Assembly (NCBI GenBank): GCA_040905525.1
Contig: JBBDRJ010000018.1
Coordinates: forward strand, 88,769-152,768
DNA from: Actinomycetota bacterium
GTDB lineage: Bacteria > Actinomycetota > JAICYB01
Length of the DNA stretch: 64,000 bases
Direction of reading: 5' to 3'
Part shown: positions 5,583 through 41,942 of the stretch, one piece after another
Layout: each line of letters begins with the position of its first letter
Numbering within the stretch: position 1 is the first letter of the stretch
Position numbers and translations under genes: made by a program
The notes under the pieces: model-generated
What the model was told of the DNA's origin: nothing
Database searches by the model: none
The model's input: only the letters and a program-made list of their open reading frames with translations

Positions 5583-6044
5583 TCAGCGAACCGTGAACGC
5601 TGTGCGCATCCCAAGCTTGTAATGGACTTCGGTCTCCCCGTCTTCGGTGTCCACGCGATTGCAGACCAGGGCGTACGGGCCGGGATCAAGATCGAGGGTA
5701 AGAGTCTGGCTGTCCCCAGGCTCGATATCTTCGATCTCGTCTACGCCATCGACCTGGTCTTCGTCTACGGATCCGTCCGTTTTCGTTGGTAGTTGGCCGG
5801 GATCGAGGTCGGTGGAGATGACAACGAACTCGTGAATGTCCTCTCCGGTGTTCTCCACCGTGAACTCGACTTCGCCGGCGGCTCCGACGTCTGGATCTGG
5901 CCCTACGGAAAACTCCCTCAGTTCAACGGCGATATTCCTCGAGGGCGCAACCGTCGGCGACGGAGCCGTCTCTGGCTCGTTGGAGGTACAGGCCGGCGCG
6001 GCGAGTATCAGCACCACAGGCAACGCCAGGATTCGCGAGCGCAT
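5583..6044 (-). CDS. Putative lipoprotein with cupredoxin-like domain
   Basis: 153 aa; signal peptide + lipobox-like LAAPAC; acidic; possible copper-ligand pattern H...C...H...M (IHEF...VCNRV...VHYKLGM). Confidence 0.45.
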   Translation of the reverse strand: MRSRILALPVVLILAAPACTSNEPETAPSPTVAPSRNIAVELREFSVGPDPDVGAAGEVEFTVENTGEDIHEFVVISTDLDPGQLPTKTDGSVDEDQVDGVDEIEDIEPGDSQTLTLDLDPGPYALVCNRVDTEDGETEVHYKLGMRTAFTVR

Positions 6045-6098
6045 CCTATCCCCTTGGGCTCAAGCTACCCACCCCACGTTACACCTCGGTCGAACGGA

Positions 6099-7133
6099 TC
6101 AGTTGCTGAGCTGGTCGAACGTGCACTCCTCCGGCTTCTTGTCGTCACGCCAGCGGACGAATCCGGCCGCGTGCCGGAACCGCTGGCCGGATTGCACGTA
6201 GTCGTAGGTGACCTCGCACACCAGCGTCGGTTCGATCGATGTCCACTCGTATTCCTTACCGCCCGTCCAGCGGCTCTGAGCTCCGGGCCCCCACTCTTCC
6301 GGCGCCCCGAACCCGGCGCCGCTTACGTTGTGCAGCGGCTCCAGGATCTTGACCAGTTCTTTGCGCTCCTTAGCGCTGAACGACGCGGTGTGGCCGATGT
6401 AGCGCAGGTTCCCATCGTCGTACAACCCCAGTAGCAGCGATCCGACGCCACCGTGCTTGTGCGGGCGGTACCCGCCCACGACGCAGTCGGCCGTGCGCTT
6501 GTGTTTGATCTTGATCATCACCCGGTCGCCGGGCGAATAAGGAAGTGTCAGCTTCTTCGCGACGATACCGTCGCATTTCACCTTCTCCAGCTCGACGAAC
6601 CAGTCCTGCGCGACGTCGGCATCGTCCGTGCAGGGTGTGAGATGGAACGTCGGACCGGGCAACGTCGCCGGTGCGCCGGGTTCCTTGGGACGCTTCTTAC
6701 CGAAGACTCCCGTCAGGACGCGCAGCCGTTCGGCGAGCGGTTCGTCACACAGGTTCTTGTCGGTGCCGAGGATGTCGAACACGACGAAGCTGGCCGGGGT
6801 CTCGCCGGCCAGCTTGTTCACGCGCGACGCGGCCGGGTGAAGCCGCGCCTGCAAAGCGTCGAAGTCGAGCCCGGAATCCGACGGCAGGATGATCTCGCCA
6901 TCGACGACGCATGGATCGGGCAATGCGTCACGCAACAGCTCCTCGACCTCGGGGAAGTACCGATTAAGGGGACGGCCGTTACGACTGTCGATCTGTACGA
7001 GATCGCCATCACGGAAGACGATCGCTCGGAAGCCGTCCCACTTCGGTTCGTAGATCCACTCGTCGCCGCGTGGGACCTCGTCTTTGCCCTTGGCGAGCAT
7101 CGGCTTCACGGGAGGCTTAACGGGTAGTGACAT
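6099..7133 (-). CDS. ligC: ATP-dependent DNA ligase (LigC-like, ligase domain only)
   Basis: 344 aa; adenylation motif I KWDGFR (KxDG), overall ATP-dependent ligase core with no appended polymerase or nuclease domain. Confidence 0.75.
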   Translation of the reverse strand: MSLPVKPPVKPMLAKGKDEVPRGDEWIYEPKWDGFRAIVFRDGDLVQIDSRNGRPLNRYFPEVEELLRDALPDPCVVDGEIILPSDSGLDFDALQARLHPAASRVNKLAGETPASFVVFDILGTDKNLCDEPLAERLRVLTGVFGKKRPKEPGAPATLPGPTFHLTPCTDDADVAQDWFVELEKVKCDGIVAKKLTLPYSPGDRVMIKIKHKRTADCVVGGYRPHKHGGVGSLLLGLYDDGNLRYIGHTASFSAKERKELVKILEPLHNVSGAGFGAPEEWGPGAQSRWTGGKEYEWTSIEPTLVCEVTYDYVQSGQRFRHAAGFVRWRDDKKPEECTFDQLSN

Positions 7134-7167
7134 ACTCCGATGGTCTCAGGTCTTCGGGGGAGGCGTC

Positions 7168-8160
7168 ATGCGATTCGTTGAAGCGGGCGGAGCAAGACTC
7201 TCGGTCATCGGGCTCGGCTGCTGGCAATTCGGTTCATGGGACTGGGGGTACGGTAACGACTACGCCCAGACGACCTCGATCGAAATAACGAACCGAGCAC
7301 TTGATCTCGGCGTGAACCTTGTGGACACCGCCGAGCTCTACGGATTCGGGCGGTCCGAGAAGATCGTGGGCCGGGCCATCGCCGAGCGGCGGCACGAGGC
7401 GTTCCTGGCGACGAAGCTCCTTCCAGTGATGCCCGTTGCGCCGATCGTCGAGCAGCGGGCGAAGGCGAGCATCGCCCGCATGCACGTGACGAACCTCGAT
7501 CTCTATCAGATCCATTGGCCGAATCCTGTCGTCGGTGACGGCACGGCGATGACCGGGATGCGCCGGCTGATCGACGCCGGCCTGGTTCGTCACGCAGGAG
7601 TTAGCAACTATCCGTTGTCGCGGTGGATGTCTGCGGATCGGGCTTTGGGCATGCCGGTACTGTCGAACCAGGTCCGTATGAACCTCGTCGATCGGCGTCC
7701 GCTCGTCGACCTTGTCCCCTTCGCGCGCAGCGAGGGACGCATCGTGATCGCCTACAGTCCGTTGGCGCAGGGGCTTCTCGGCGGGCGCTACGACCCCGAC
7801 AACGTGCCGACCGGAGTGGCGCGTCGCTCCAACCCGCTGTTCCTGCCCGAGAACCTCGAGCGAGCCACAACGCTGATAGGTGCGCTTCGTGACATAGCGG
7901 CGAGTCATCAATGCACGCCGGCTCAGATCGCGCTGGCCTGGGTGGTGCGCCATTCCAACGTCGTCGCGATCCCGGGTGCCTCGAGCGTTGAGCAGTTGGA
8001 GGCCAACGTCGCTGCGGCCGAGATCGAGCTCACTGAATCGGAAGCCCGCCAGCTCGAGGAAGCCGCCGACGCCTTCGAGCCCATCAGAGGAGCGGCCGCT
8101 GTTCGAGAGATGGCCGAGTCGGTCGTGTCCGGCCTTCGCGGCCGATTGGGACTTCGCTAG
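7168..8160 (+). CDS. Aldo/keto reductase
   Basis: ORF 7084..8160; start moved to ATG 7168 (RBS GGGGGAGG); MRFVEAGGARLSVIGLGCWQFG... typical AKR N-terminus. Confidence 0.8.
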   Translation: MRFVEAGGARLSVIGLGCWQFGSWDWGYGNDYAQTTSIEITNRALDLGVNLVDTAELYGFGRSEKIVGRAIAERRHEAFLATKLLPVMPVAPIVEQRAKASIARMHVTNLDLYQIHWPNPVVGDGTAMTGMRRLIDAGLVRHAGVSNYPLSRWMSADRALGMPVLSNQVRMNLVDRRPLVDLVPFARSEGRIVIAYSPLAQGLLGGRYDPDNVPTGVARRSNPLFLPENLERATTLIGALRDIAASHQCTPAQIALAWVVRHSNVVAIPGASSVEQLEANVAAAEIELTESEARQLEEAADAFEPIRGAAAVREMAESVVSGLRGRLGLR

Positions 8161-29018: not shown

Positions 29019-29808
29019 CACTGCTCAGCCACTGCTCCCACGTTATGCGTCCGTCGGCGTGGGTGGGGGTGAGGTTGTAGCCCGCCCGAAAGCCGGCCAT
29101 CGCCTTGCCCGGGATCGGAACCGATAACACGGCCCGGCGCTTTCCGACGGCCTGCAGGTAGGTGTCGACGATGTAACGCATGTCGAGGACCTTGGGGCCG
29201 CCCATGTCCGGCACGTGCTGCGACGGACCGGCGTCCACGATGGCCACCATCCGGTCGGCGACCTCGCCGGCGTCGAGCAACTGCGACTTGAAGCCCTTCG
29301 GCGCCATAACGATGGGAGCGGCGCTGAGCCGCCGGCAGAACTCGAAGGCCAGCGTGTGCCACTGCGTCGTGCGCAGGATCGAGTACGGCAATCCGCTGCG
29401 TTCAATCACACCCTCGGTCTCGAGCTTGGCCCGGTAGTACCCAAGGGGCACTCGATCTACGCCGACGATCGAGATGTAGACCACATGGGGCGTGCCCATC
29501 TCCGAGGCTTTGGCCACGAGACGCTCGGTCGGCTCGACGTCGGTCTTCCGAGGCAACTTGTAGCCCATGCCGCGCAGGCCCGAGTCGCCCGCCCCGCTCG
29601 CGCAGTGAACGATCGCGTCGACCGATGACAGGGCGGCGTCCAGACCTTCACCGGTGGTGAGGTCGCCCTGTACCGATTGAACTCCGGCGACCAGATCGGG
29701 GTTGGCGCGCCGGGAGAGAACCTTCACGTCGTAGCCCTTGGCCACGAGACGCGGGACGAGCTCGCGTCCGAGATTTCCGGTGCCGCCGGTGACGAGGACT
29801 TGGGTCAC
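29011..29808 (-). CDS. NAD(P)H-binding protein (NmrA-like/SDR superfamily)
   Basis: 265 aa; N-terminal VLVTGGTGNLGRELVPRLVAKGYDVKVL Rossmann motif. Confidence 0.7.
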   Translation of the reverse strand: MTQVLVTGGTGNLGRELVPRLVAKGYDVKVLSRRANPDLVAGVQSVQGDLTTGEGLDAALSSVDAIVHCASGAGDSGLRGMGYKLPRKTDVEPTERLVAKASEMGTPHVVYISIVGVDRVPLGYYRAKLETEGVIERSGLPYSILRTTQWHTLAFEFCRRLSAAPIVMAPKGFKSQLLDAGEVADRMVAIVDAGPSQHVPDMGGPKVLDMRYIVDTYLQAVGKRRAVLSVPIPGKAMAGFRAGYNLTPTHADGRITWEQWLSSAT

Positions 29809-32800
29809 CGCTTCTTGTCCTTAGCGGTTCGCTGCGGAAGCGACGGCAGGGCCAGGCGGGGACGCTTGGTCATGTCCGGTTCCAGCGGACGGTGCTTGCG
29901 CAGCGCTTCGCGCATCAGGCGCAGCGCCGTGTCCATCTGGGGGTCACGGCCGGCGGCGTGATCTTGCGGTGAGATGTCGACATCGTGCGTTGGGTCCGTC
30001 CCGTAGTTCTCTACCCCCCACCCGACGTCGGTGAACCAGAAGGAGTACTCGGGCTGCGTCGTGATCCCGTTGTCGACGAGCACGTGGCGCATGTTGATGC
30101 CGACGACGCCTCCCCACGTTCGCTTCCCGACCACGGGGCCCATCTGCTTCATCTTGAAGACGTGAGAGAAGATGTCGCCGTCCGATCCGGCGAGCTCGTT
30201 GGTTATGCACACCAGCGGCCCGGCGGGTGAGTCTTCCCAGTACGGTTCCGGGTCGCCCCAGCGCGTGACCGCATAACCGACTCGTTCGCGCGCGAGCTTC
30301 TCGAGGATGATCGATGACACGTGGCCGCCCCCGTTGTAGCGGACGTCGATGATCAGGCCGTCGCGGTGCATCTCCGCGCTGTAGTACCGGTGGAACTCCG
30401 AGAACCCCTCGGGCCCCATGTCCGGGATGTGGATGTACCCGACCCTTCCTGCTGTTGCCTCGTGGACGAAGGCCCGGTTCGTCTCGACCCACTCGCGGTA
30501 AAGAGGGCCCGAATCGTCGGCCAAGGTCTTGACGACGACCGTGCGCGGGTTGCGTCCGCGCGTATCGCCCAGGACGAACTCGACGTCGACGCCGGCTTGG
30601 TGGACGAGAAGCAAGTGCGGCGGCCGGTCCTCTGAGACCGCCTGGCCGTTGACGGCGAGGATCGTGTCGCCCTCCCTGGCCTGAACCCCCGGTGCGGCGA
30701 AAGGCGAGTTGTGCTGTGGATCCCAGCTGTCTCCGCGCACGATGTGGGTGATCGTCCAGTGGCCACCGCGAAAGCTCACCCGGCTCGCGAGCAAGCCGAC
30801 CCGGTACTGCGGCGGCGGCTTGATATCGCCGCCCATCTCGTAGGCGTGGGATGTCCCGAGCTCGCCGAGCATCTCCCACATGAGGTCGGAGAACTCCATA
30901 CGGCTCGCAACCTTCTCGACGAGCGGGCGGTAGCGATCGTGGATCCGACGCCAGTCCACGCCGGACATGTCTGCGACCCAGAAGTGCTCTCGCTGGAAGC
31001 GCCAAGCCTCGCGGTACATCTGCCGGTATTCAGTCGCCGGGTCGACGGAGACGCGGACGCGTCCCAGATCGATCCATCCGCTGCGTCGTCCCGGCTCGTC
31101 TTCGGCCTTGGGATCCGGCTTCTCGCCGGCCTTGAGCGCTCGAAGCTTGGGTCCGGCCCGGTAGACCAGCGTCGATCCGTCGGCCGAGACCTGGAAGGCC
31201 GAGACGCCTTGCACGATGGTGTCGAGCTTCAGCTCGTTCAGGTCGTATACGTCGATCTTGCCTTTGGGCTTCTTGTCGTCGACCTCGAAGATGTCGTCGC
31301 CGAGCGTGCCAACTACGGGCCAGCTTGTGAACAGAACCTTTCCGCGTATGCCGCGCACCTGTGTGTAGCGGCCCTCGGGCATCGGGAAGGCGGCCACACG
31401 GTCATGGATGCCTTCCAGATCGACGGCGACCGGTTCGGGTGCAGACTTGGAGTCCTTTTTCTCGGCAGAGCGCTTGGCCTTCTTGTCGGCGCCGGCTTCG
31501 GGATTCTTCTTTTCGTTCGGCTGGGATCCGAAGCCGCGGGGCTTGGGAACGAAGGGCGAGGGGTCGGCGTCGCGCAGCGTGATCAGATGTGGGCGGACCG
31601 ACCGGGGGAACCCGTAGGAGAAGAACAGAGTGTCGGAAACCGGATCGAAGATCCGGTGCGACAAGAAGTACAGGTATTTGCCTTCGGGGTCGAAGGCGGG
31701 CGAGTAATCGAAGAAGTCAGGGCGCGTCACGTCCTGCGTGGCTCCGGAGGACACTTCGCACAGCCGGATGGAGGCGTTGCGAGCCGTCGACGCATAGCTG
31801 TACGCGACGTATCGGCCATCGGGTGACCAGGCCGGCCCCGATATCACGCGATGAGGGCTCCGATCGAGCACGCGGCTTCGATCGCTCTTCAGATCGATCC
31901 AGATCAACTCGTTGCGATGATTGGTCAAGACGACCTGTTGGGCCGTGGGTGAGGTGACGAGCTCCATCGGCCGGCCGATGTCTACGCGGTCGAGTCGCTT
32001 CGTCCGGCTGGCGTCGGAGGCGGAATAGACCTCGATGGCTTCCTCGCCGCCTTCGTCGGAGACGCAGACGAGGGCCTCCCCGTCGCTCGTCCAGTGCGGA
32101 AGCCGGTAGCGCACGCCGTCGCGCTGGCCGTACTGACGTACGGCCAGCTCCCACAACGGCATCGTGAACAACTTTCCCCGAGTTGCGAGCGCGACGGCGT
32201 GCCCATCGCCGTGGACGCCCCAGCTGTGCAGGAAACGTTTGGCATCGACGAAGCGCCGGTTGCGTCCGATGCGCGGGCTCCGGAAGTCGACGTCCACCCT
32301 TTCCGAGATGTCGGTCGCCGGGTCGTAAGTCCAGATCTCCGCGGCCAGCTGATAGGCGATGCGTTGTCCGTCCGTCGATGCCCATCGCGCGTAGTACGTG
32401 TCGTGATCGGTGTGGCGGCGGACGTCCCGCCCCGCTGGGGTGCAGGAGTAGAGGTTGCCGATGCCTTCGTGGTCGGACAGGAAGTAGATACGACCTCCGA
32501 CCCACAAGGGGGAGGCAAGGTTCCCCTCGACGTTGAGTAAACGCCTGAAACTTCCCCGACCTTGCGCGTCGATCCAGATGTCGCCTCGCGTTCCTCCGCG
32601 ATACCGCTTCCAGCGGGCGGGGTCGATGGTGTGGCGGCCGAGGACGATTCCTTCCCCGTTCGGTGCGTAGGCCAGCTCGGTGGCCGGGCCGACGTTGATC
32701 TGCTCCGGGATCCCTCCATCGGGGTCGAGCGCGTACACGCGGTAGTCGCCGCGGTTGGCCAGGCCGGAGTCGCTCATGAAGAGGATGCGACCGTCGGGCG

Positions 32801-33110
32801 TCCAACCGCGCACGGCGGTGAGAGAGCCGAGATAGGTGCGGCGGCGAGCCTGGCCCCCGTCGGCAGGCATGACGTAGACCTCGGCGTGCGCCTCCTCGGT
32901 TCCCGTGAACGCGATCAACTCTCCGTCTCCCGAGACGATCGTGCGCCCGACCGGGCCGAGGTTGGATGTGAGCCGGCGGGCGACACCTCCAGAGCGAGGA
33001 ACGGTCCACACGTCGTCCTCGCTTATGAAGACGATGCGATCGCCCGCGATGGACGGGGATCGGAAGTACCCGCTGTTGATCGTGTCGGTGTCCATCATGG
33101 CGGGGGTCAA
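29805..33110 (-). CDS. Tricorn protease homolog (S41 peptidase with beta-propeller and PDZ domains)
   Basis: 1101 aa; TTG start; repeated propeller-like segments, C-terminal S41 core (GPVVGKRTWGG); size and architecture match tricorn. Confidence 0.8.
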   Translation of the reverse strand: MTPAMMDTDTINSGYFRSPSIAGDRIVFISEDDVWTVPRSGGVARRLTSNLGPVGRTIVSGDGELIAFTGTEEAHAEVYVMPADGGQARRRTYLGSLTAVRGWTPDGRILFMSDSGLANRGDYRVYALDPDGGIPEQINVGPATELAYAPNGEGIVLGRHTIDPARWKRYRGGTRGDIWIDAQGRGSFRRLLNVEGNLASPLWVGGRIYFLSDHEGIGNLYSCTPAGRDVRRHTDHDTYYARWASTDGQRIAYQLAAEIWTYDPATDISERVDVDFRSPRIGRNRRFVDAKRFLHSWGVHGDGHAVALATRGKLFTMPLWELAVRQYGQRDGVRYRLPHWTSDGEALVCVSDEGGEEAIEVYSASDASRTKRLDRVDIGRPMELVTSPTAQQVVLTNHRNELIWIDLKSDRSRVLDRSPHRVISGPAWSPDGRYVAYSYASTARNASIRLCEVSSGATQDVTRPDFFDYSPAFDPEGKYLYFLSHRIFDPVSDTLFFSYGFPRSVRPHLITLRDADPSPFVPKPRGFGSQPNEKKNPEAGADKKAKRSAEKKDSKSAPEPVAVDLEGIHDRVAAFPMPEGRYTQVRGIRGKVLFTSWPVVGTLGDDIFEVDDKKPKGKIDVYDLNELKLDTIVQGVSAFQVSADGSTLVYRAGPKLRALKAGEKPDPKAEDEPGRRSGWIDLGRVRVSVDPATEYRQMYREAWRFQREHFWVADMSGVDWRRIHDRYRPLVEKVASRMEFSDLMWEMLGELGTSHAYEMGGDIKPPPQYRVGLLASRVSFRGGHWTITHIVRGDSWDPQHNSPFAAPGVQAREGDTILAVNGQAVSEDRPPHLLLVHQAGVDVEFVLGDTRGRNPRTVVVKTLADDSGPLYREWVETNRAFVHEATAGRVGYIHIPDMGPEGFSEFHRYYSAEMHRDGLIIDVRYNGGGHVSSIILEKLARERVGYAVTRWGDPEPYWEDSPAGPLVCITNELAGSDGDIFSHVFKMKQMGPVVGKRTWGGVVGINMRHVLVDNGITTQPEYSFWFTDVGWGVENYGTDPTHDVDISPQDHAAGRDPQMDTALRLMREALRKHRPLEPDMTKRPRLALPSLPQRTAKDKKR

Positions 33111-34211: not shown

Positions 34212-35104
34212 TAGCTTCCGACGGCGGCTTTTTGCGCGTTGGCCACGATCGCGTTCACGACCAGCGGCCACGCGTCCTTCGGAAGATCGTGGCCCATGCC
34301 TTCGATCGTCACGAGCCTGGCCCGCTCGATGACATCGGCCATCTTCCGACCGTTGGCCACCGGGACGAGCCGGTCGTCGGTGCCGTGGATCACGACGATA
34401 GGGATCGTGAGCTTGACCAGGGAGGCGCCGCGCCCGGGGGCGGCTCGGACCGCGAGCATCTGGCGCACTCGGCCTGCAGGTGCGTAGCTGCGGTCGTAGG
34501 TGCGTGCCGCGATGTCGCGCATAGCGTCCTCGTCGAAGGGGAAACCGCGACCGGCCATGATCCGGCGGTGACGCACGTCCTGCTCGATCGCCTCATCACG
34601 CTCGGTGGCCGCCGGCTCGGTGAAGATCGTGAGGACGTCCACGTCGTCGGTAAGAACGGGATCCTCTCCCATCGCGGACATGATCGAGGCGAGAGAAAGC
34701 ACACGATCGGAATGACGGATCGCGAGGACCTGTCCGATCATCCCGCCCATCGACTGCCCGGCTATGTGGGCTTTGGTTATCCCCAGGCGATCCAGGAGCC
34801 CGGCGACGTCGTCGGCCATGTCGTCGACCGTGTAGGGAAGACCGGGCGATGCCTCGTCGATTGGCGCTTCCGCGGCGTCACGCCGGAGCGAAGCGGAGGG
34901 GCTATCGAACTTCGTGGTCAGTCCGACGTCCCGGTTGTCGAAGGTGATCACGTGGAAGCCTTCGTCCACCAGGAGGTCGCGGAAGCCTTCCGGCCACCGG
35001 ATGAGCTGGGAGCCCAGCCCGTTTATCAGGACGAGGGCCGCGTCGTCCGGCGCCCCGAACGTCTCGTAGTAGATCTCGATGCCGTTGGCCTTGGCGATGG
35101 GCAT
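34211..35104 (-). CDS. Alpha/beta hydrolase
   Basis: ORF 34211..35311; start moved to Met at 35104 (MPIAKANGIEIYYETFG); nucleophile elbow GQSMGG; the upstream ORF extension is an artefact of the tandem repeat. Confidence 0.8.
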   Translation of the reverse strand: MPIAKANGIEIYYETFGAPDDAALVLINGLGSQLIRWPEGFRDLLVDEGFHVITFDNRDVGLTTKFDSPSASLRRDAAEAPIDEASPGLPYTVDDMADDVAGLLDRLGITKAHIAGQSMGGMIGQVLAIRHSDRVLSLASIMSAMGEDPVLTDDVDVLTIFTEPAATERDEAIEQDVRHRRIMAGRGFPFDEDAMRDIAARTYDRSYAPAGRVRQMLAVRAAPGRGASLVKLTIPIVVIHGTDDRLVPVANGRKMADVIERARLVTIEGMGHDLPKDAWPLVVNAIVANAQKAAVGS

Positions 35105-35163
35105 GCACAGATGCTCCGCCAGTTGGCGCTTGCCTCGCAAGCGCTGCGGGTACGCTGCAATCA

Positions 35164-36765
35164 ATGGCCGGGAGCATCCCCGCCTCTTCGCCTGCCTTTT
35201 CGCCCGCCTTTTCGCCCGCCTTTTCCAATGAGCCGTTCGCCGATCTTCGATCCGCGGAGGTTCGCGAAAAGTTCGGTGCTGCAGTATCGGCCGCCGCCCG
35301 CTCTGCCGCATTCGAGGCTCCGCTGATCATCGCCGGCGAACGCTTAGCCACCCAAGGAAGGATCGACTCGGTCGATCCTTCCGATCCGGGGCGCGTCGTT
35401 TGTCGGTCGGGGAGGGCCGGCCGGGCCGAGGTAGATCGCGCGGTCGAGGCCGCGGCCCGCGCGCAGGGCGCGTGGGCCGCCACCTCGCCGCGCTATCGGG
35501 CCGACGTGGTTCTTCGGGCGGCCGCGATCATGCGCGAGAAGCGATGTGAGCTGGCCGGCCTCGAAGTGATCGAGGCCGGCAAGCCGTGGACTCAGGCCGA
35601 CGCCGATGTATGCGAGGCGATCGACTTCTGCGAGTACTACGCGCGAGAGGTCTTGCTTTTGGCCGAAGGCGCGCCGGTGCTGCAAGCCCCCGGAGAGTCC
35701 AACTCCTACGGCTACCAGTCGCGGGGGATCGTCGCCGCGATAGCTCCCTGGAACTTCCCGCTAGCGATCCCATGCGGGATGGTGACGGCGGGATTGGTTT
35801 GCGGCAATGCGGTGATGCTTAAACCGGCGGAGCAGACACCGGGTGTTGGGCTGCGACTGATCGAGATCCTTCTCGAAGCGGGCGTGCCGTCCGGCGCTTT
35901 GGCCTTCCTGCCCGGAGTCGGAGAAGAAGCGGGTGCGGCTCTCGTCGATCACCCGCAGATCTCCGTCATCGCCTTCACGGGCTCGAAGGACGTCGGACTG
36001 CAGATCATCGAGCGTGCCGCGGTCACCGGACGAGGACAGCGTCACGTGAAGAAAGTGATCGCAGAGATGGGCGGCAAGAACGCGGTTGTCGTGGACGCCG
36101 ACGCGGACCTCGACTTGGCCGTACCGGCCATCGTCGACAGCGCGTTCGCGTACGCGGGCCAGAAGTGCTCGGCTGCTTCGCGCCTCATCGCCGTCGGCGA
36201 CGTCTACGACGCGGTCGTCGATCGGCTCGTGGAGGCGACTAGATCGGTGCGGGTCGGCCCCGCATCAGATCCCGAGACCGTGGTCGGACCGGTCATCGAC
36301 GAGATCGCCTTCCGGCGGATCGGCCGTTACCAGGAGATTGCTCGTGAAGAAGGCGAAGTTCTCGTTCAGCGCACCGACATCCCGGACACGGGTTGGTTCG
36401 TGGGGCCAACCGTGGCCGCCTGCGAAGATCCGGACGCACGCATCGCCACCGAAGAGATCTTCGGCCCCCTGATCGTCTGTTTGCGGGCGGACGACTTCGG
36501 GCGCGCGCTCGAGATCGCGAACTCCACCCCGTACGCACTCACCGGCGGCGTGTTCTCGCGTACGCCGGCGCATATCCGGCAGGCTTCCGAGCAGATGCGT
36601 GCGGGCAACATCTACATCAACCGGAAGATCACGGGAGCCCTGGTCGGACGCCAGCCCTTCGGCGGATACGGCTTGTCCGGTGTGGGCTCCAAGGCCGGTG
36701 GCCCCGACTACCTGCTGCAGTTCTGTGAGCCGCGTGTGATCACGGAGAACACGGCGCGGCCTTGA
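35164..36765 (+). CDS. pruA: L-glutamate gamma-semialdehyde (1-pyrroline-5-carboxylate) dehydrogenase, aldehyde dehydrogenase family
   Basis: 533 aa; ALDH motifs (EMGGKNA, catalytic-Cys region GQKCSAAS) and P5CDH-like C-terminus GGYGLSGVGSKAGGPDYLLQF; N-terminus carries a (PAFS)3 repeat. Confidence 0.7.
   Translation: MAGSIPASSPAFSPAFSPAFSNEPFADLRSAEVREKFGAAVSAAARSAAFEAPLIIAGERLATQGRIDSVDPSDPGRVVCRSGRAGRAEVDRAVEAAARAQGAWAATSPRYRADVVLRAAAIMREKRCELAGLEVIEAGKPWTQADADVCEAIDFCEYYAREVLLLAEGAPVLQAPGESNSYGYQSRGIVAAIAPWNFPLAIPCGMVTAGLVCGNAVMLKPAEQTPGVGLRLIEILLEAGVPSGALAFLPGVGEEAGAALVDHPQISVIAFTGSKDVGLQIIERAAVTGRGQRHVKKVIAEMGGKNAVVVDADADLDLAVPAIVDSAFAYAGQKCSAASRLIAVGDVYDAVVDRLVEATRSVRVGPASDPETVVGPVIDEIAFRRIGRYQEIAREEGEVLVQRTDIPDTGWFVGPTVAACEDPDARIATEEIFGPLIVCLRADDFGRALEIANSTPYALTGGVFSRTPAHIRQASEQMRAGNIYINRKITGALVGRQPFGGYGLSGVGSKAGGPDYLLQFCEPRVITENTARP
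35190..35225. repeat. 12-bp tandem direct repeat x3 (gcc[t/c]gccttttc)
   Basis: gcctgccttttc gcccgccttttc gcccgccttttc, preceded by a degenerate partial unit; in frame within the pruA 5' end, encoding PAFS-PAFS-PAFS. Confidence 0.7.
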
Positions 36766-38156
36766 CCGACACCACCATGCAAGACCGACAACGGGGCGCG
36801 ACTCGTGTAGCGATCTCGGCGCTCGCGTGGACGGCGTTGCTCGCCGGAGCCAAGACGACGGTGGGCGTGCTCACCGGATCCGTTGCCGTTCTGGGCGACG
36901 GTTTGCACTCGATCCTCGACGTCGTCGTCGCGGGGGTGACGCTTTTCGCCGTGAGGCTGTCGGGAAAGCCTCCCGATCGGGAGCACCCCTACGGGCACGG
37001 ACGCATCGAGAACCTCGCCGCGCTCGGCGAAGCCTTCGTCATGTTCATCGTCGGCGCCGGCGTGGGGGCCGAGGCCGTGCGCCGGATCGTGAACGATGCC
37101 GAGATAACGGCTCCGGTATACGCGATCGCCGTTACCGCGGCGGCGCTGGTCATCGGCGCGTGGCGCTCGCGCGTGCTTCGGCGCGCGGCCGCCCGTTTCT
37201 CCTCGCCCGCCCTGCAAGCCGATGCCCTCAACATGACGGCAGATGTCGGTGAGTCTCTTGCCGTTCTGATCGGACTCGGTGCATCGCGCCTTGGCTTCCC
37301 GGCCGGGGATCCCATCGCGGCCCTGGTCGTCGTGGCGACGATGTGGGTCATGGCGGGACGCATCGGATGGGCGGCGGTTAATGTCTTGATGGATCGGGTA
37401 CCGGCCGGTCTGCAGGAGCGCGTCGCGGCGGCCGCCCGTGGCGTGAGCGGCGTCGCGGGCGTCGGCGATCTCCGCGTCCGGGAGTCGGGGCCGAACGTGC
37501 ATGCCGAGGTCAACATCAGCGTCGGCCGCACGGCGTCGGTCGAACGATCTCACGAGATCACCGAAGCCGTGGAGGCTGCCGTTGCGAGCGCTGTGCCCGG
37601 GGCCACGGCAACCGTGCACGTCGAGCCGAGCACACGAGGAGAAGACTTCGTCGCGCGCACCTTCGCAGCAGCGAATCGTCTCGGGCTGGCCGATCAGGTG
37701 CACAACGTGCTGGCCATCCGTCATCCGGAAGGGCTCTGGCTGATGCTGCACGCGAAGGTTCCGGCCTCCACGCCGCTGGCCGACGCGCATGCCATAACCG
37801 ACGAGCTCGAGCGCGAGATCCGCAAGGAGATACCGGCGCTCGCGCGGGTCGAGATCCACGTCGAACCGCACGAGCCACCCATGATGCGCGGGTCCGATGT
37901 AGGCACCGAGCGCGCGCGGCTGACCCGTGACGTTCAACGCGTCGCCGAGAGACACGATCCGATCACGCGGTGCCACGAGGTGGCCATCAGTGAGGCCGAG
38001 GATGGCCTGCACCTCGTTCTGCACTGCGAAGCGCCTGGAGGCACGACGATCGGCGAGATTCACGACGCGTCACTGTGGATCGAGGACGAGATCCACCGTC
38101 GCTACGACGAAGTGCGCAGCATTACCGTGCATTTCGAGCCGCAGCGGTTATCGTGA
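36762..38156 (+). CDS. Cation diffusion facilitator (CDF) family transporter with tandem C-terminal cytoplasmic domains
   Basis: 464 aa from TTG 36762 (alternative ATG 36777); CDF TM core (HSILDVVV, HPYGHGRIEN) followed by two successive CTD-like segments. Confidence 0.7.
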   Translation: MTDTTMQDRQRGATRVAISALAWTALLAGAKTTVGVLTGSVAVLGDGLHSILDVVVAGVTLFAVRLSGKPPDREHPYGHGRIENLAALGEAFVMFIVGAGVGAEAVRRIVNDAEITAPVYAIAVTAAALVIGAWRSRVLRRAAARFSSPALQADALNMTADVGESLAVLIGLGASRLGFPAGDPIAALVVVATMWVMAGRIGWAAVNVLMDRVPAGLQERVAAAARGVSGVAGVGDLRVRESGPNVHAEVNISVGRTASVERSHEITEAVEAAVASAVPGATATVHVEPSTRGEDFVARTFAAANRLGLADQVHNVLAIRHPEGLWLMLHAKVPASTPLADAHAITDELEREIRKEIPALARVEIHVEPHEPPMMRGSDVGTERARLTRDVQRVAERHDPITRCHEVAISEAEDGLHLVLHCEAPGGTTIGEIHDASLWIEDEIHRRYDEVRSITVHFEPQRLS

Positions 38157-38169
38157 TGCGATTCACGAA

Positions 38170-39333
38170 ATGAACACCTACCGGCGCATACAGGCTGATC
38201 CGGCTGATTACTTCGCGGCCGAGGAAGTCAAGAAGGCAAAGGACTATCAGCGGCCGCTCACGGTGGCGCGCGCGATCTCGCTCGTGCTCAACGCCGGTCT
38301 TATCGTGGCCGTGATATCGACCGACGCAGCGCCGCGTCTGGCGGATGCTGCCGGCATCGATGCGTGGCCGCTGCGGCTGCTGTTCGTCCTTATCTTGTTG
38401 ACGCTGGCTCTCACGATCATCGATCTGCCCATCTCGATCTGGACGACCTTCTCCCACGAACGCAAATGGGAGTTCTCAACCGAGACCCCGGGCGGATTCG
38501 TTGGGGACGAGGTCAAAGGCTTCGTGCTGGGGATAGTGCTTCAGGGAGCGCTCTTCCTGACGCTGTGGTGGCTCATCCAAACGACCGAACTTTGGTGGCT
38601 GGCCGGGTGGGCCGCGTTCTTCCTCTTCAGTGTGGTTCTGGCGTTCCTGTTCCCGATCGTCATCATGCCGATCTTCAACAAGTTCACGCCGCTGGAAGAC
38701 GAAGGTCTTGCGACGAGGCTGCGCGCATTGGCCGAGGGAGTCGGGATGCGCATCAGCGGCGTTCAGGTAATGGATGCCTCCAAGCGGACGCGCAAGGACA
38801 ACGCTTTCTTCGCCGGGCTCGGCGGTTCACGCCGCATCGTGATCTTCGACAACCTCTTGTCCCAGCCCGCCGACGTGATCGCGAGCATCGTCGCCCACGA
38901 GCTCGGTCACTGGCGCCGCCGCCACGTGGCGAAGGGGATCGTGCTGGGCACCGTCACGTCGCTCTCGTTGTTCGTGGTTCTGCGTTTCGTAGCGTCGTGG
39001 GATGCAGCGCTCGATTGGGCCGGTGTCTCGAGCGTCCGTGATCCGGCGGCTCTGCCTCTCGTCCTGCTCGTCTTCGCCCCCGTCAGCTCGGCTATCGGCA
39101 TCGTGCAGGCTTGGATCTCTCGTGCGCACGAGCGACAGGCCGATATCGATGCGTTGGAGATCACCAACGACCGCGAGGCCTTCGCAGAGACCCACCGAGG
39201 ACTTTCGACTCGAAACCTCATCGACCTCGCGCCCTCGTGGTGGCGATACGTCCGAGCGAGCCACCCGCCGCCGGCCGAGCGTCTTCGGCTGGCCGATGAA
39301 TGGCGCCCCTCCGAGCGATCGAAAGTAAGCTGA
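38170..39333 (+). CDS. M48 family zinc metallopeptidase (Ste24/HtpX-like)
   Basis: ORF 37927..39333; start at ATG 38170 (MNTYRRIQADPADYF); HExxH motif VAHELGHW, multi-TM N-terminal half. Confidence 0.8.
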   Translation: MNTYRRIQADPADYFAAEEVKKAKDYQRPLTVARAISLVLNAGLIVAVISTDAAPRLADAAGIDAWPLRLLFVLILLTLALTIIDLPISIWTTFSHERKWEFSTETPGGFVGDEVKGFVLGIVLQGALFLTLWWLIQTTELWWLAGWAAFFLFSVVLAFLFPIVIMPIFNKFTPLEDEGLATRLRALAEGVGMRISGVQVMDASKRTRKDNAFFAGLGGSRRIVIFDNLLSQPADVIASIVAHELGHWRRRHVAKGIVLGTVTSLSLFVVLRFVASWDAALDWAGVSSVRDPAALPLVLLVFAPVSSAIGIVQAWISRAHERQADIDALEITNDREAFAETHRGLSTRNLIDLAPSWWRYVRASHPPPAERLRLADEWRPSERSKVS

Positions 39334-39338
39334 GGCCC

Positions 39339-40280
39339 GTGGCCTACGCTCCGCCCGACACACGTCCTCCACACCGCTCGACGGCCGATCGCATCGTGCG
39401 CGTCATCGGCGTCCTCGGCCGGATCTTCGTGGCGGCCGGGCTGGTCCTGCTCTTCTTCACCGGCTATCTGCTGTGGGGCACCGGTGTCTACACCAAACAG
39501 CAGCAGGTGGATGCCAAGAAGGTGCTCGAAAGCAATCCGATAGTCGACCAAGCAGAGATATCAGAAGGCGATATTCCACCGGCCCGGCCCCCACAAGGCT
39601 TGAAGCTGGGGGACCCGCTGTTCTCGATCAAGATCCCGAAGATCGGTCTGGACACGGCGATCGTCCAAGGCGTGGGACGCGAGGAGCTCAAGAAGGGTCC
39701 GGGATTGTTCCCCGACTGCGACGAGTACGGCGGCAGGGACTGCGTGCCCGAGGCTAAGTATCCCGGCGAGAACGGCAATGTGGCCATCTCAGGCCACCGC
39801 ACTACATACGGCGCTCCCTTCTACCGCATCCAGGAGCTGGCCCAGGGAGACATCATCGACTTCATCTCCGGCCGCGCGCGGTACCGCTACAAGGTGCGGG
39901 GCTCGGAGATCGTGGATCCGGTGGCCGGCTTCAACGTTGTGCTCCAGCACGGCAAAGACGAGCTCACGCTAACGACCTGTCACCCGCGGTTCTCGGCGGC
40001 GCAGCGGTTGATCATCAACGCAGATTACGTCGGTGCATCGTTGGTGGCAGCGCCGCAGGGTCCCACCGGCGGCGGCGCGCGGCCGAGCGCTCAGCCTGTC
40101 GTGGGCGCCGACGTTCTGATCCTCGCCAGCATCGCTCTCGCCAGCGCTTTAGCATCGCTCGGACTATCGAAGCGCTACAAGCATGTTGCCGCCTACATCG
40201 CGCTCGGCCTGGCAGGCGCAGCCGGCCTGTGGATAGGCGTGTTCCCGCGAGTGATCGCGCTTATGCCGGCGAACTACTGA
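39339..40280 (+). CDS. Class E sortase
   Basis: ORF 39300..40280; GTG 39339 (after GAGG) avoids overlap with the upstream gene, ATG 39300 also possible; N-terminal TM anchor, catalytic region TLTTCHPRFSAAQRLII, C-terminal TM. Confidence 0.65.
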   Translation: MAYAPPDTRPPHRSTADRIVRVIGVLGRIFVAAGLVLLFFTGYLLWGTGVYTKQQQVDAKKVLESNPIVDQAEISEGDIPPARPPQGLKLGDPLFSIKIPKIGLDTAIVQGVGREELKKGPGLFPDCDEYGGRDCVPEAKYPGENGNVAISGHRTTYGAPFYRIQELAQGDIIDFISGRARYRYKVRGSEIVDPVAGFNVVLQHGKDELTLTTCHPRFSAAQRLIINADYVGASLVAAPQGPTGGGARPSAQPVVGADVLILASIALASALASLGLSKRYKHVAAYIALGLAGAAGLWIGVFPRVIALMPANY

Positions 40281-40284
40281 CCAA

Positions 40285-40686
40285 CTAAGCCTTGCGACGA
40301 GTTCGCGTACGTGTCGGCGCGGCCGGCTTACTAGACTCGGCGGCGATCTCGGCCCTCAGCCGGACCGATTGCTGCCAGTGCCACCAGAAGATGGCCGCCG
40401 CGGCGAGGGCGAATATGCCGTTCTCGGCGAGTGACGCGATGCCGCGATCGCGTTCGGCGTCGCCGGTGTCGAAGCCGCCGCTCCTGATCAAGGGGGCGTC
40501 TTCATCTACGAGCGTGGGAAATGCGAATCCGGAGTCACCGCCTTGCGCTGTTGTTCCGGGTGCGGCGATGCGGATGAGCGCGTAGACCGCGCTCGCCGAA
40601 GAGAACAGGACGACGACGACGGTCACCAGGCAGACGGCGTACAGGTAGATCTGGAAGGCTCGGCGGCCCGGTCGTTCGTCAGGCAT
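40285..40686 (-). CDS. Hypothetical small membrane protein
   Basis: 133 aa, two predicted TM segments; overlaps the upstream gene by 8 nt; no recognisable motif. Confidence 0.4.
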   Translation of the reverse strand: MPDERPGRRAFQIYLYAVCLVTVVVVLFSSASAVYALIRIAAPGTTAQGGDSGFAFPTLVDEDAPLIRSGGFDTGDAERDRGIASLAENGIFALAAAAIFWWHWQQSVRLRAEIAAESSKPAAPTRTRTRRKA

Positions 40687-41269
40687 CGCGTTTCTCCTCT
40701 TCCAAGAGCCGTTGTCCGGCTCGCGCGTGGAACATCATGATTCCCAAAGCAACGATCAAGATCGTGCCGCTCTCCGCTGCCTGCCTTCCGGCACCGCTTC
40801 GAGCACCCGATGCCATGCAGGCGGGTGTGCGCACGTCGCCGAACTCGGGTCGCACCGGCTGAGGCGGCCTGACGGGCGAGATCTGTCCCGCGACAGGCGG
40901 TTCACTCGCAGCGCCCAGCCGCGCTGAGCTCTCCAGCTGTCTGCGGATCCCGGGCGGCAGTTGGTCGAGGAATTCCCCGGGGGGTGGGACATCGATGGTC
41001 TCTTCGTCCGTGAAGGCCGGCTCGGTACACGAGTAACCGAGGGGTTGATCGGCGATGGCCGCGGCGATGGACGACGTCAGGCCCCTCAGAGACGCGAACG
41101 CGGCAAGGAACGAAACGAACAGCACTATTCCGAGGTAAGCCGTGTAGGGATTTCGCAGGGGCGCTTCGTCGCGCCGGCCCAGCACCAGCCATACACCGAG
41201 GACGACGAAGGCCGCTATCCCGAGGACGAGAAGACCAGCGAGCAGGGGGAGCGCTCCGCCGAGCAGCAT
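40679..41269 (-). CDS. Hypothetical membrane protein
   Basis: 196 aa with 2-3 hydrophobic segments and a Pro-rich linker; divergent from the ECF sigma gene. Confidence 0.4.
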   Translation of the reverse strand: MLLGGALPLLAGLLVLGIAAFVVLGVWLVLGRRDEAPLRNPYTAYLGIVLFVSFLAAFASLRGLTSSIAAAIADQPLGYSCTEPAFTDEETIDVPPPGEFLDQLPPGIRRQLESSARLGAASEPPVAGQISPVRPPQPVRPEFGDVRTPACMASGARSGAGRQAAESGTILIVALGIMMFHARAGQRLLEEEKRDA

Positions 41270-41381
41270 CGCTGGAAATCATACGCGTGAGGCCGAAATA
41301 CACAACCCGACCCCGCGGGTTCCATTGGAAGTGCCGCTTCCGCGAGGTGCAGGTCGTGTCGGTAGGGTTGGAGCAACGGCC

Positions 41382-41942
41382 ATGGAGAGCGGCAACGAGG
41401 TAGCCAAAAGCGACGAAGAACAGGTTCGGCGCTTCGAGGAGTTGATCGTTCCTGAGATGCCGTTCCTTGCACGGATCGCGCGAGCGATGTCCCACTCGCA
41501 GGCCGAGGCCGACGACCTCGCCCAGGAGACCTTGGTCAAGGCCTTTCGGGCCATCGAGCGGTTCGACGGACGCTATCCCCGCGCCTGGCTCACGCGGATC
41601 GCTCGCAACACGGCGATCAATCGAGACCAGAGAAACCGCGAGTTCCTGCTCGCCGACGAGGGCGTCGTGGAGCCGGAGCCCGCACCCGACGAGGTCACCG
41701 ACCCCGAGGACATCGTCGTCGGACAACAGATGGACGAGACACTCCGGGCCGCTCTTGACGACCTGCCGCCGGACTTTCGGATCGTCGTCCAGCTCGTGGA
41801 CGTCGAGGACATGACCTACCAGGAAGCTGCCGACGTGCTGGACATTCCCATCGGGACGGTAATGAGCCGGCTGCATCGGGCGCGAACGCGCCTGCGTCGC
41901 GCGCTTAGCGGCACATCCCTGGACCGTGGGGCGGCGCTATGA
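41382..41942 (+). CDS. ECF (sigma-70 family) RNA polymerase sigma factor, SigR/SigH-like
   Basis: ORF 41325..41942; start at ATG 41382 after GGAG; region 2 (ETLVKAFRAIERFDGRYPRAWLTRIARNTAIN) and region 4 (MTYQEAADVLDIPIGTVMSRLHRAR); paired with a ZAS anti-sigma gene. Confidence 0.8.
   Translation: MESGNEVAKSDEEQVRRFEELIVPEMPFLARIARAMSHSQAEADDLAQETLVKAFRAIERFDGRYPRAWLTRIARNTAINRDQRNREFLLADEGVVEPEPAPDEVTDPEDIVVGQQMDETLRAALDDLPPDFRIVVQLVDVEDMTYQEAADVLDIPIGTVMSRLHRARTRLRRALSGTSLDRGAAL

Follow-up and report, generated by a model that had tools for sequence, protein, structure and literature searches.

The DNA considered here is a stretch of 64,000 nucleotides, hereafter the window, from an Actinomycetota bacterium (GenBank assembly GCA_040905525.1, contig JBBDRJ010000018.1, forward-strand positions 88,769 to 152,768). 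On its + strand, at 36762..38156, lies a gene for a transporter from the family of cation diffusion facilitators (CDFs), in which a membrane core is followed by three tandem C-terminal domains (CTDs). According to a program-made list of open reading frames (ORFs) and to the sequence itself, the gene is complete, begins with TTG, ends with the TGA stop codon at 38154-38156 and specifies 464 amino acids; an earlier note on this DNA had given the same coordinates, the same length and a six-helix CDF core, and all of these were matched exactly. The TTG overlaps the TGA stop codon of an aldehyde-dehydrogenase gene immediately upstream (ccTTGAcc), an arrangement that suggests translational coupling of the CDF gene to its neighbor. 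In support of this start, the close homologues P0002 and P0003 begin at the matching position, and codon 6 is not Met in either. An ORF of 451 amino acids (36708-38063, - strand) runs antisense to the CDF gene; it is rich in Arg, Gly and Pro and resembles a high-GC shadow ORF.

The CDF core was recognized by profile models, by alignment to YiiP and by structure prediction. Pfam Cation_efflux (PF01545) matched residues 19-210 with 151.1 bits against a cut-off of 26.6, and the CDF superfamily model TIGR01297 scored 243.7 bits (cut-off 82.35). Together with the YiiP alignment and an AlphaFold model, the Pfam match delimits a transmembrane domain of six helices at residues 19-210 (36816..37391, + strand). 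The modeled helices span residues 2-38, 41-67, 82-111, 119-146, 149-176 and 182-209; each is 27-37 residues long and has a predicted local distance difference test score (pLDDT) >90. By alignment to D45/D49 and H153/D157 of YiiP, transport site A consists of H49 and D53 on transmembrane helix 2 (TM2) and of N157 and D161 on TM5; the xD-xD motif is present, in the variant HD-ND, where the family consensus is HD-HD. Furthermore, D53, D161 and D211 are invariant across 148 sequences of the family, and the equivalents of YiiP site B (D72/H75/H79, from the alignment to E. coli YiiP 2qfi) and of the charge interlock (R81 and D211) are conserved.

Position 157 of the protein (37230-37232 in the window, on TM5) is Asn in 46 of the 148 sequences and His in 96, and the subclade to which this protein belongs has Asn. 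The residue may mark a shift in the metal preference of that subclade, and it is a weak hint of a harder ion, for example Mn2+ or Fe2+. In MntE and ZnT10 an Asn in site A goes with Mn2+, but in those proteins the Asn is on TM2. An assignment of the metal from the site-A motif was dropped, because a review states that correlations between motif and metal are unreliable. The NCBIfam equivalog models NF050169, NF007064, NF033615, NF033616 and NF052621, which stand for FieF/YiiP, MamM, MamB and MntE, were all missed, with 157.7, 147.2, 159.5, 149.9 and 157.4 bits against cut-offs of 420, 447, 350, 350 and 500, respectively. Scores of ~147-160 bits lie far under cut-offs of 350-500, and the protein therefore falls outside all of the named subfamilies; judged from its sequence, it is a CDF that sits close to the Fe/Zn and Mn branches, related about equally to FieF, MamM, MamB and MntE.

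Three C-terminal domains and their metal ligands

Following the membrane core, the Pfam model ZT_dimer (PF16916; cut-off 26.7 bits) matched three stretches and not two, at residues ~218-289 (64.2 bits), ~303-375 (43.2 bits) and ~395-461 (35.8 bits). The earlier note had described two consecutive CTDs after the CDF core. The extra copies are real, but the ZT_dimer scans and the AlphaFold model put the number of domains at three, and the count of two was replaced: the two segments picked out previously are the first domain (VHAEVNISVGRT...TVHVEP) and the third (CHEVAISEAEDG...TVHFEP), and the middle copy (VHNVLAIRHPEGLWLMLHAKVP...EIHVEP) had been overlooked. From the ZT_dimer matches, the secondary structure assigned by DSSP and the register of the metal ligands, CTD1, with the order alpha-beta-beta-alpha-beta, was delimited to residues 217-290 (37410..37631, + strand). 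CTD2 and CTD3, for which Foldseek was used in addition, occupy residues 296-370 (37647..37871) and 385-460 (37914..38141) on the same strand. The linker between them, residues 371-384 (37872..37913, + strand), was placed from the statistics of the domain gaps and is modeled with high pLDDT. In 255 triple-CTD proteins, the gap between CTD1 and CTD2 has a median of 7 residues and the gap between CTD2 and CTD3 a median of 18.

A full-length AlphaFold2 model, built on the 148-sequence alignment, has a mean pLDDT of 95.4 and a predicted template-modeling score (pTM) of 0.86; in it, six long helices precede three modules of alpha-beta-beta-alpha-beta order. When the CTD2-CTD3 fragment was modeled alone (residues 291-464, 35 sequences), the pLDDT was 94.5 and the pTM 0.73. 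Domain search and structure prediction, which had been proposed as the check on the extra segments, both found the CTD fold there (Pfam, DSSP and Foldseek, TM 0.79-0.87). Searched singly with Foldseek, CTD2 and CTD3 matched the MamM CTD with template-modeling scores over the target (TMt) of 0.85-0.88 at a root-mean-square deviation of 1.6-2.1 Å, as well as the T. maritima CzcD CTD (0.82), 2zzt (0.81) and the MamB CTD (0.79-0.82). The whole model, compared with the Protein Data Bank (PDB), retrieved only single-CTD CDFs (YiiP, ZnT1/3/4/7/8 and SLC30A10), with TMt values of 0.6-0.79 (0.78 for YiiP 8f6e), scores over the query (TMq) of ~0.5 and ~280 aligned columns. All solved structures matched to the protein have the single-CTD layout, sequence matches in the PDB stop at residue ~290 of the query, and Foldseek found no PDB chain that spans both CTD2 and CTD3 (TMq <= 0.44).

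In YiiP, metal site C is located at the interface between the two CTDs of the dimer, where His232, His248 and His283 are contributed by one protomer and His261 by its neighbor, with Asp285 as the bridge from one ion to the other (PMC6465983); His261 is the sole ligand that crosses between protomers (PMC5947572), and it binds a Zn together with His283 and Asp285. In S. oneidensis numbering, C1 comprises H234/H250/D287 and C2 comprises D287/H263/H285 (PMC8282283). A gapless profile alignment was used to carry the register H232/H248/H261/H283/D285 of YiiP onto each domain of the present protein, and the corresponding residues are G235/N251/H264/H286/E288 in CTD1, H314/H330/H343/H366/E368 in CTD2 and H405/H421/H434/H457/E459 in CTD3. 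On this alignment, each of the five site-C positions is His or acidic in CTD2 as well as in CTD3. CTD1 has the C2 subset only (H264/H286/E288), and its C1 positions are taken by G235 and N251. The occupancy of the ligand positions over the 148 sequences is 87-99% in CTD2, 74-94% in CTD3 and ~71% in CTD1.

The three-domain layout is shared by hundreds of co-linear proteins and goes far past anything that chance would give. A word-indexed search returned 396 homologues, and among the 120 matches listed more than 100 are co-linear with the query, with lengths of 444-483 amino acids and identities of 37-97%. When 1.84 billion cluster representatives were searched exhaustively, at least 592 matched at E <= 1e-30, and the best 150 of these 592 representatives are mostly 455-495 amino acids long. 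CTDs were counted in 149 representatives (50%-identity clusters) with a hidden Markov model (HMM) built from the family's own CTDs: three copies were found in 134 proteins, two in 11, one in 3 and five in 1. Pfam confirmed two CTDs in P0184 and P0231, and in P0126 (653 amino acids) five tandem ZT_dimer domains after a single Cation_efflux domain. The protein is not a one-off, because three CTDs are the usual state of a large clade. Deinococcus frigens (L078) had been considered as a cultured carrier of two CTDs on the strength of a tblastn range; the family HMM gives one CTD in this species, and the candidate was rejected.

At the level of genomes, 28 of the 80 best species-representative loci encode three CTDs, and all 28 are metagenome-assembled genomes (MAGs). 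These belong to at least 8 phyla and include Actinomycetes, Solirubrobacterales, Acidobacteriota, Verrucomicrobiota, Alpha- and Deltaproteobacteria, and Chloroflexota-type lineages (Anaerolineae, Dormibacterota and Limnocylindria). A triple-CTD CDF that is 37% identical to the query is also encoded at 6001-7344 of locus L005 (DATLSE010000054.1), in an archaeal MAG labeled Nitrosotalea sp.; the other carriers are bacterial, and this thaumarchaeal copy could reflect horizontal transfer or binning contamination. Two homologues have layouts of their own. P0262 (613 amino acids) consists of two complete CDF units in tandem, each type of domain being present twice (2 Cation_efflux and 2 ZT_dimer); this could be a dimer fused covalently or a gene-calling error. 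P0149 (712 amino acids) carries an N-terminal TMEM175-like potassium-channel domain and has three CTDs by the family HMM and two stretches by Pfam; either the fusion is real or two gene calls have perhaps been merged.

The copies inside one protein are 22-25% identical to each other, and when each copy is compared with the CTDs of other proteins, its nearest neighbor has the same position in 147 of 148 cases for CTD1, 143 of 148 for CTD2 and 135 of 148 for CTD3. A recent internal duplication was ruled out on these two grounds. The same-position neighbors indicate that the triplication is older than the spread of the family and that the three positions have separate identities; by this sequence comparison, the triplication is ancient. 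Altogether, these data show that the gene encodes a genuine CDF with an HD-ND transport site, three modules of CTD fold and a deeply conserved architecture.

Proposed pairing of the C-terminal domains

Covariation between ligand positions was assessed by Fisher tests on the 148 sequences, and the tests were repeated after thinning below 50, 45 and 40% pairwise identity, for which median p values are given in that order. Within CTD1, the His261 equivalent covaries with the His283 equivalent of its own domain (264-286, p = 1.5e-15; filtered 1.5e-12, 6.8e-8 and 3e-4), which fits a homotypic CTD1:CTD1' pair. The same pairs within CTD2 (343-366, p = 1; filtered 1, 1 and 1) and within CTD3 (434-457, p = 1; filtered 1, 1 and 0.49) show no coupling. 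Across the two domains, the His283 equivalent of CTD2 covaries with the His261 equivalent of CTD3 (366-434, p = 9.2e-10; filtered 2.6e-8, 2e-7 and 8.7e-5), and a signal is also seen between the His261 equivalent of CTD2 and the His283 equivalent of CTD3 (343-457, p = 1.2e-6; filtered 1.2e-3, 0.018 and 0.1); the 434-366 cross-domain site is strongly supported by covariation and the 343-457 site weakly. The C1 pair 405-421 is tightly coupled (p = 1e-25), and in ligand-by-ligand tests on the family alignment no ligand of CTD1 was coupled with any ligand of CTD2 or CTD3. Furthermore, H434 has been lost in nine proteins that are mutually <= 45% identical, and eight of the nine have lost H366 as well; in a clade without the ligands of CTD3, H434 is retained and H343 is lost.

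The reading favored here, to which a probability of about 0.6 is given on the basis of alignments and models, is that of a CDF antiporter with a CTD1:CTD1' pair and a metal-clamped pseudo-dimer of CTD2 and CTD3. The protein would act as a homodimeric divalent-metal/H+ antiporter, i.e., an efflux pump, and, in the manner usual for CDFs, its dimer would be held by TM3/TM6, by the R81-D211 interlock and by the CTD1:CTD1' pair, the last of these being fixed by a C2-type site as in YiiP (H264' with H286 and E288). CTD2 and CTD3 would form a heterotypic pseudo-dimer that mimics the metal-clamped CTD homodimer of YiiP: H434 of CTD3 would complete the H366/E368 site of CTD2, H343 of CTD2 would complete the H457/E459 site of CTD3, and each domain would retain a C1-type site of its own (H314/H330/E368 in CTD2 and H405/H421/E459 in CTD3). 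Up to 4 metal ions could then be bound per CTD2:CTD3 unit, and the cytoplasmic part of a whole dimer could take up to ~10, against 4 for YiiP. Joined to CTD1 by a short, rigid linker of ~5-7 residues, the CTD2:CTD3 module may serve as a metal-dependent clamp or sensor that stabilizes the transporter and/or tunes its response to cytoplasmic metal.

The conserved lengths of the linkers, ~18 residues between CTD2 and CTD3 and ~7 between CTD1 and CTD2, agree with a pseudo-dimer in which CTD3, but not CTD1, is the partner of CTD2. Pairing within one chain is favored because the linker from CTD2 to CTD3 is long and the models of both the monomer and the fragment have a high pTM, and it is the most likely arrangement on the sequence and model evidence, although an inter-chain CTD2:CTD3' arrangement could take its place. 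The suggestion of the earlier note that additional CTDs could alter metal sensing or dimerization is plausible and has indirect support from the conserved ligand positions and from the covariation of ligands between domains. The sensor role is speculative, because site C of YiiP is held to be chiefly structural. A domain swap abolishes the native dimer of S. oneidensis YiiP when site C carries the double mutation D287A/H263A (PMC10617992). It is a tentative idea, and a doubtful one at present, that CTD2:CTD3 constitutes a natural single-chain CTD dimer, working as an autonomous clamp whose two non-equivalent binuclear sites would set the threshold or cooperativity of the transporter allosterically; the relatives with 1, 2, 3 and 5 CTDs would then represent modular tuning of the set-point.

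Several points weigh against the pseudo-dimer reading. The coupling of 343 with 457 is not significant at the strictest filter (p = 0.1), and a test of H343 against the whole CTD3 site gave p = 0.002 unfiltered and 0.1-0.43 filtered, and was replaced by the ligand-by-ligand tests. Fisher tests on related sequences inflate independence even after filtering. The packing of CTD2 on CTD3 is suggested by the pTM values and the covariation and by no other line of evidence; intra-chain CTD2:CTD3 and inter-chain CTD2:CTD3' pairs would give the same covariation, and AlphaFold models of a monomer tend to close a swapped interface within the one chain. No regulator, riboswitch or conserved neighbor in the searches of the locus points to a particular metal. 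In addition, site C of YiiP is described as mainly structural, with scant evidence for a role in transport (PMC8282283).

Other explanations of the extra domains were weighed against the CTD2:CTD3 pseudo-dimer. The three CTDs of each chain might stack in homotypic tiers (CTD1:CTD1', CTD2:CTD2' and CTD3:CTD3') to give a long stalk with YiiP-like sites at each tier. Symmetric homotypic pairing is the rule in all solved CDFs (PMC6465983), and the full ligand sets of CTD2 and CTD3 could in principle form homotypic sites; such a stack is nevertheless unlikely, as the own-domain pairs 343-366 and 434-457 do not covary (p = 1), the cross-domain pair 366-434 does so at p = 9e-10 and withstands filtering, and the signature of homotypic pairing is seen in CTD1. 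The clade that keeps H434 and has lost H343 together with the CTD3 ligands would also be hard to explain by a stack. It is quite unlikely that the extra CTDs are instead a cytoplasmic module for buffering, storing or handing off metal, or a docking platform for a partner, with no part in dimer stability or allostery. Many His and acidic ligands are conserved in them, the CTD fold resembles that of a metallochaperone (PMC8282283), and the copy number differs among relatives (1, 2, 3 and 5), as expected of a module that provides capacity; on the other hand, the pTM of 0.86, the confidently modeled linkers and the conserved short linker between CTD1 and CTD2 speak for a rigid unit anchored to the transporter rather than a free buffer, the conserved ligands sit exactly at the positions of the structural site C of YiiP, and no conserved partner gene was found in the homologous loci.

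A trivial origin, in which the protein results from an error of assembly, a frameshift or a gene fusion, or in which the extra domains are degenerate, non-functional repeats, has nothing in its favor other than a length that is unusual for a CDF. A single unbroken frame spans the whole ORF, a protein that is 97% identical is known from an independent metagenome, and a syntenic locus (L001) is present in a MAG. More than 250 homologues of ~460 amino acids are co-linear with the query down to ~27% identity, and for that reason the ORF is not a frameshift fusion, a possibility that the earlier note had raised against its own proposal. All three CTDs score above the Pfam threshold, are modeled with pLDDT >90 and have conserved ligands. 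An artefact is thereby refuted.

Genomic neighborhood

The CDF gene is the second of four tightly packed genes on the + strand (35164-40280). It follows the aldehyde-dehydrogenase gene (35164-36765) and precedes a gene for a Ste24-like M48 peptidase, whose ATG at 38170 lies 13 nt past the CDF stop, and a sortase gene (39300-40280), which overlaps the final part of the M48 gene. L001, an uncultured Actinomycetes MAG in which the CDF is 81% identical, keeps the four genes in this order, and other phyla do not; when the homologous genome loci were compared, no neighbor recurred across phyla and synteny was seen with L001 only. Among the Pfam-annotated neighbors (~29.8-42.9 kb), neither a metal-responsive regulator nor a magnetosome gene was found, and the sole regulatory gene encodes a sigma factor of the extracytoplasmic function (ECF) type. 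No metal riboswitch (NiCo/czcD or yybP-ykoY) was detected at gathering thresholds in the whole window or at E <= 1 in 34800-38400.

Farther from the CDF gene, the - strand carries an ORF of 1100 amino acids (29805-33110) with Tricorn protease C1, Tricorn PDZ, S41 peptidase and PD40 beta-propeller domains, i.e., a tricorn-like protease in an actinobacterial context. On the other side, two adjoining ORFs for small membrane proteins (40285-40686 and 40679-41269, - strand) gave sub-threshold matches to DUF5671, and the ECF-type sigma factor gene (41325-41942, + strand) is divergent from this pair.

Known CDF systems and meaning for the family

Reviews describe CDFs as proteins of one membrane domain and one regulatory CTD, and it is still debated whether the CTD serves as a sensor or only holds the dimer together (PMC8282283, PMC6465983). 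YiiP/FieF (E. coli P69380; S. oneidensis YiiP) aligns with the membrane domain and CTD1 of the query, residues 11-290 (E = 4.5e-33, 29% identity), the folds match (TMt 0.78), the residues of site B and of the interlock are kept, and CTD2 and CTD3 of the query carry all five site-C positions. The two proteins differ in that YiiP has one CTD of ~80 amino acids and the query three, and site A is DD-HD in YiiP but HD-ND in the query. Moreover, CTD1, the counterpart of the YiiP CTD, is without the C1 ligands (G235 and N251), whereas complete sites are predicted in the added domains, where they would apparently lie between two unlike domains rather than between identical protomers.

The isolated CTD structures of MamM and MamB are the best fold matches for the extra domains, and E249/H264/H286/E288 of CTD1 align with D249/H264/H285/E289 of MamM, the positions targeted in the structures of MamM CTD mutants. 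These four residues are the metal ligands of MamM. In contrast to the query, MamM and MamB have a single CTD and a role in magnetosome biomineralization, and the query reaches 159.5 and 149.9 bits against their cut-offs of 350. Other variants of the CDF architecture include CDFs that lack a CTD and eukaryotic members whose TM4-TM5 loop is rich in His (PMC6465983); they attest to plasticity of the cytoplasmic part and to added metal-binding elements, but tandem CTDs are not among them. Full-text searches for this architecture in open-access papers and preprints gave no description of multi-CTD CDFs, and the 'two CTDs' of the MamM papers proved to be the two protomers of the dimer, not tandem copies. 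The three-CTD layout is very probably visible in domain-architecture databases, yet it appears to be uncharacterized.

Taken together, the protein belongs to a large and widespread clade, which comes mainly from metagenomes of soil and other environments. Its members normally have three CTDs, an architecture that is masked by the label 'cation diffusion facilitator family transporter' given by annotation pipelines. If the CTD2:CTD3 pseudo-dimer is real, these proteins would offer a natural setting for altering each half of a CTD pair, and each metal site, on its own; because the two halves differ in sequence, each site could be mutated alone, which is impossible in symmetric homodimers. The long-debated question of whether the CTD is a sensor or a structural element would then become directly testable, and CTD copy number would be an evolutionary variable of the CDF family.

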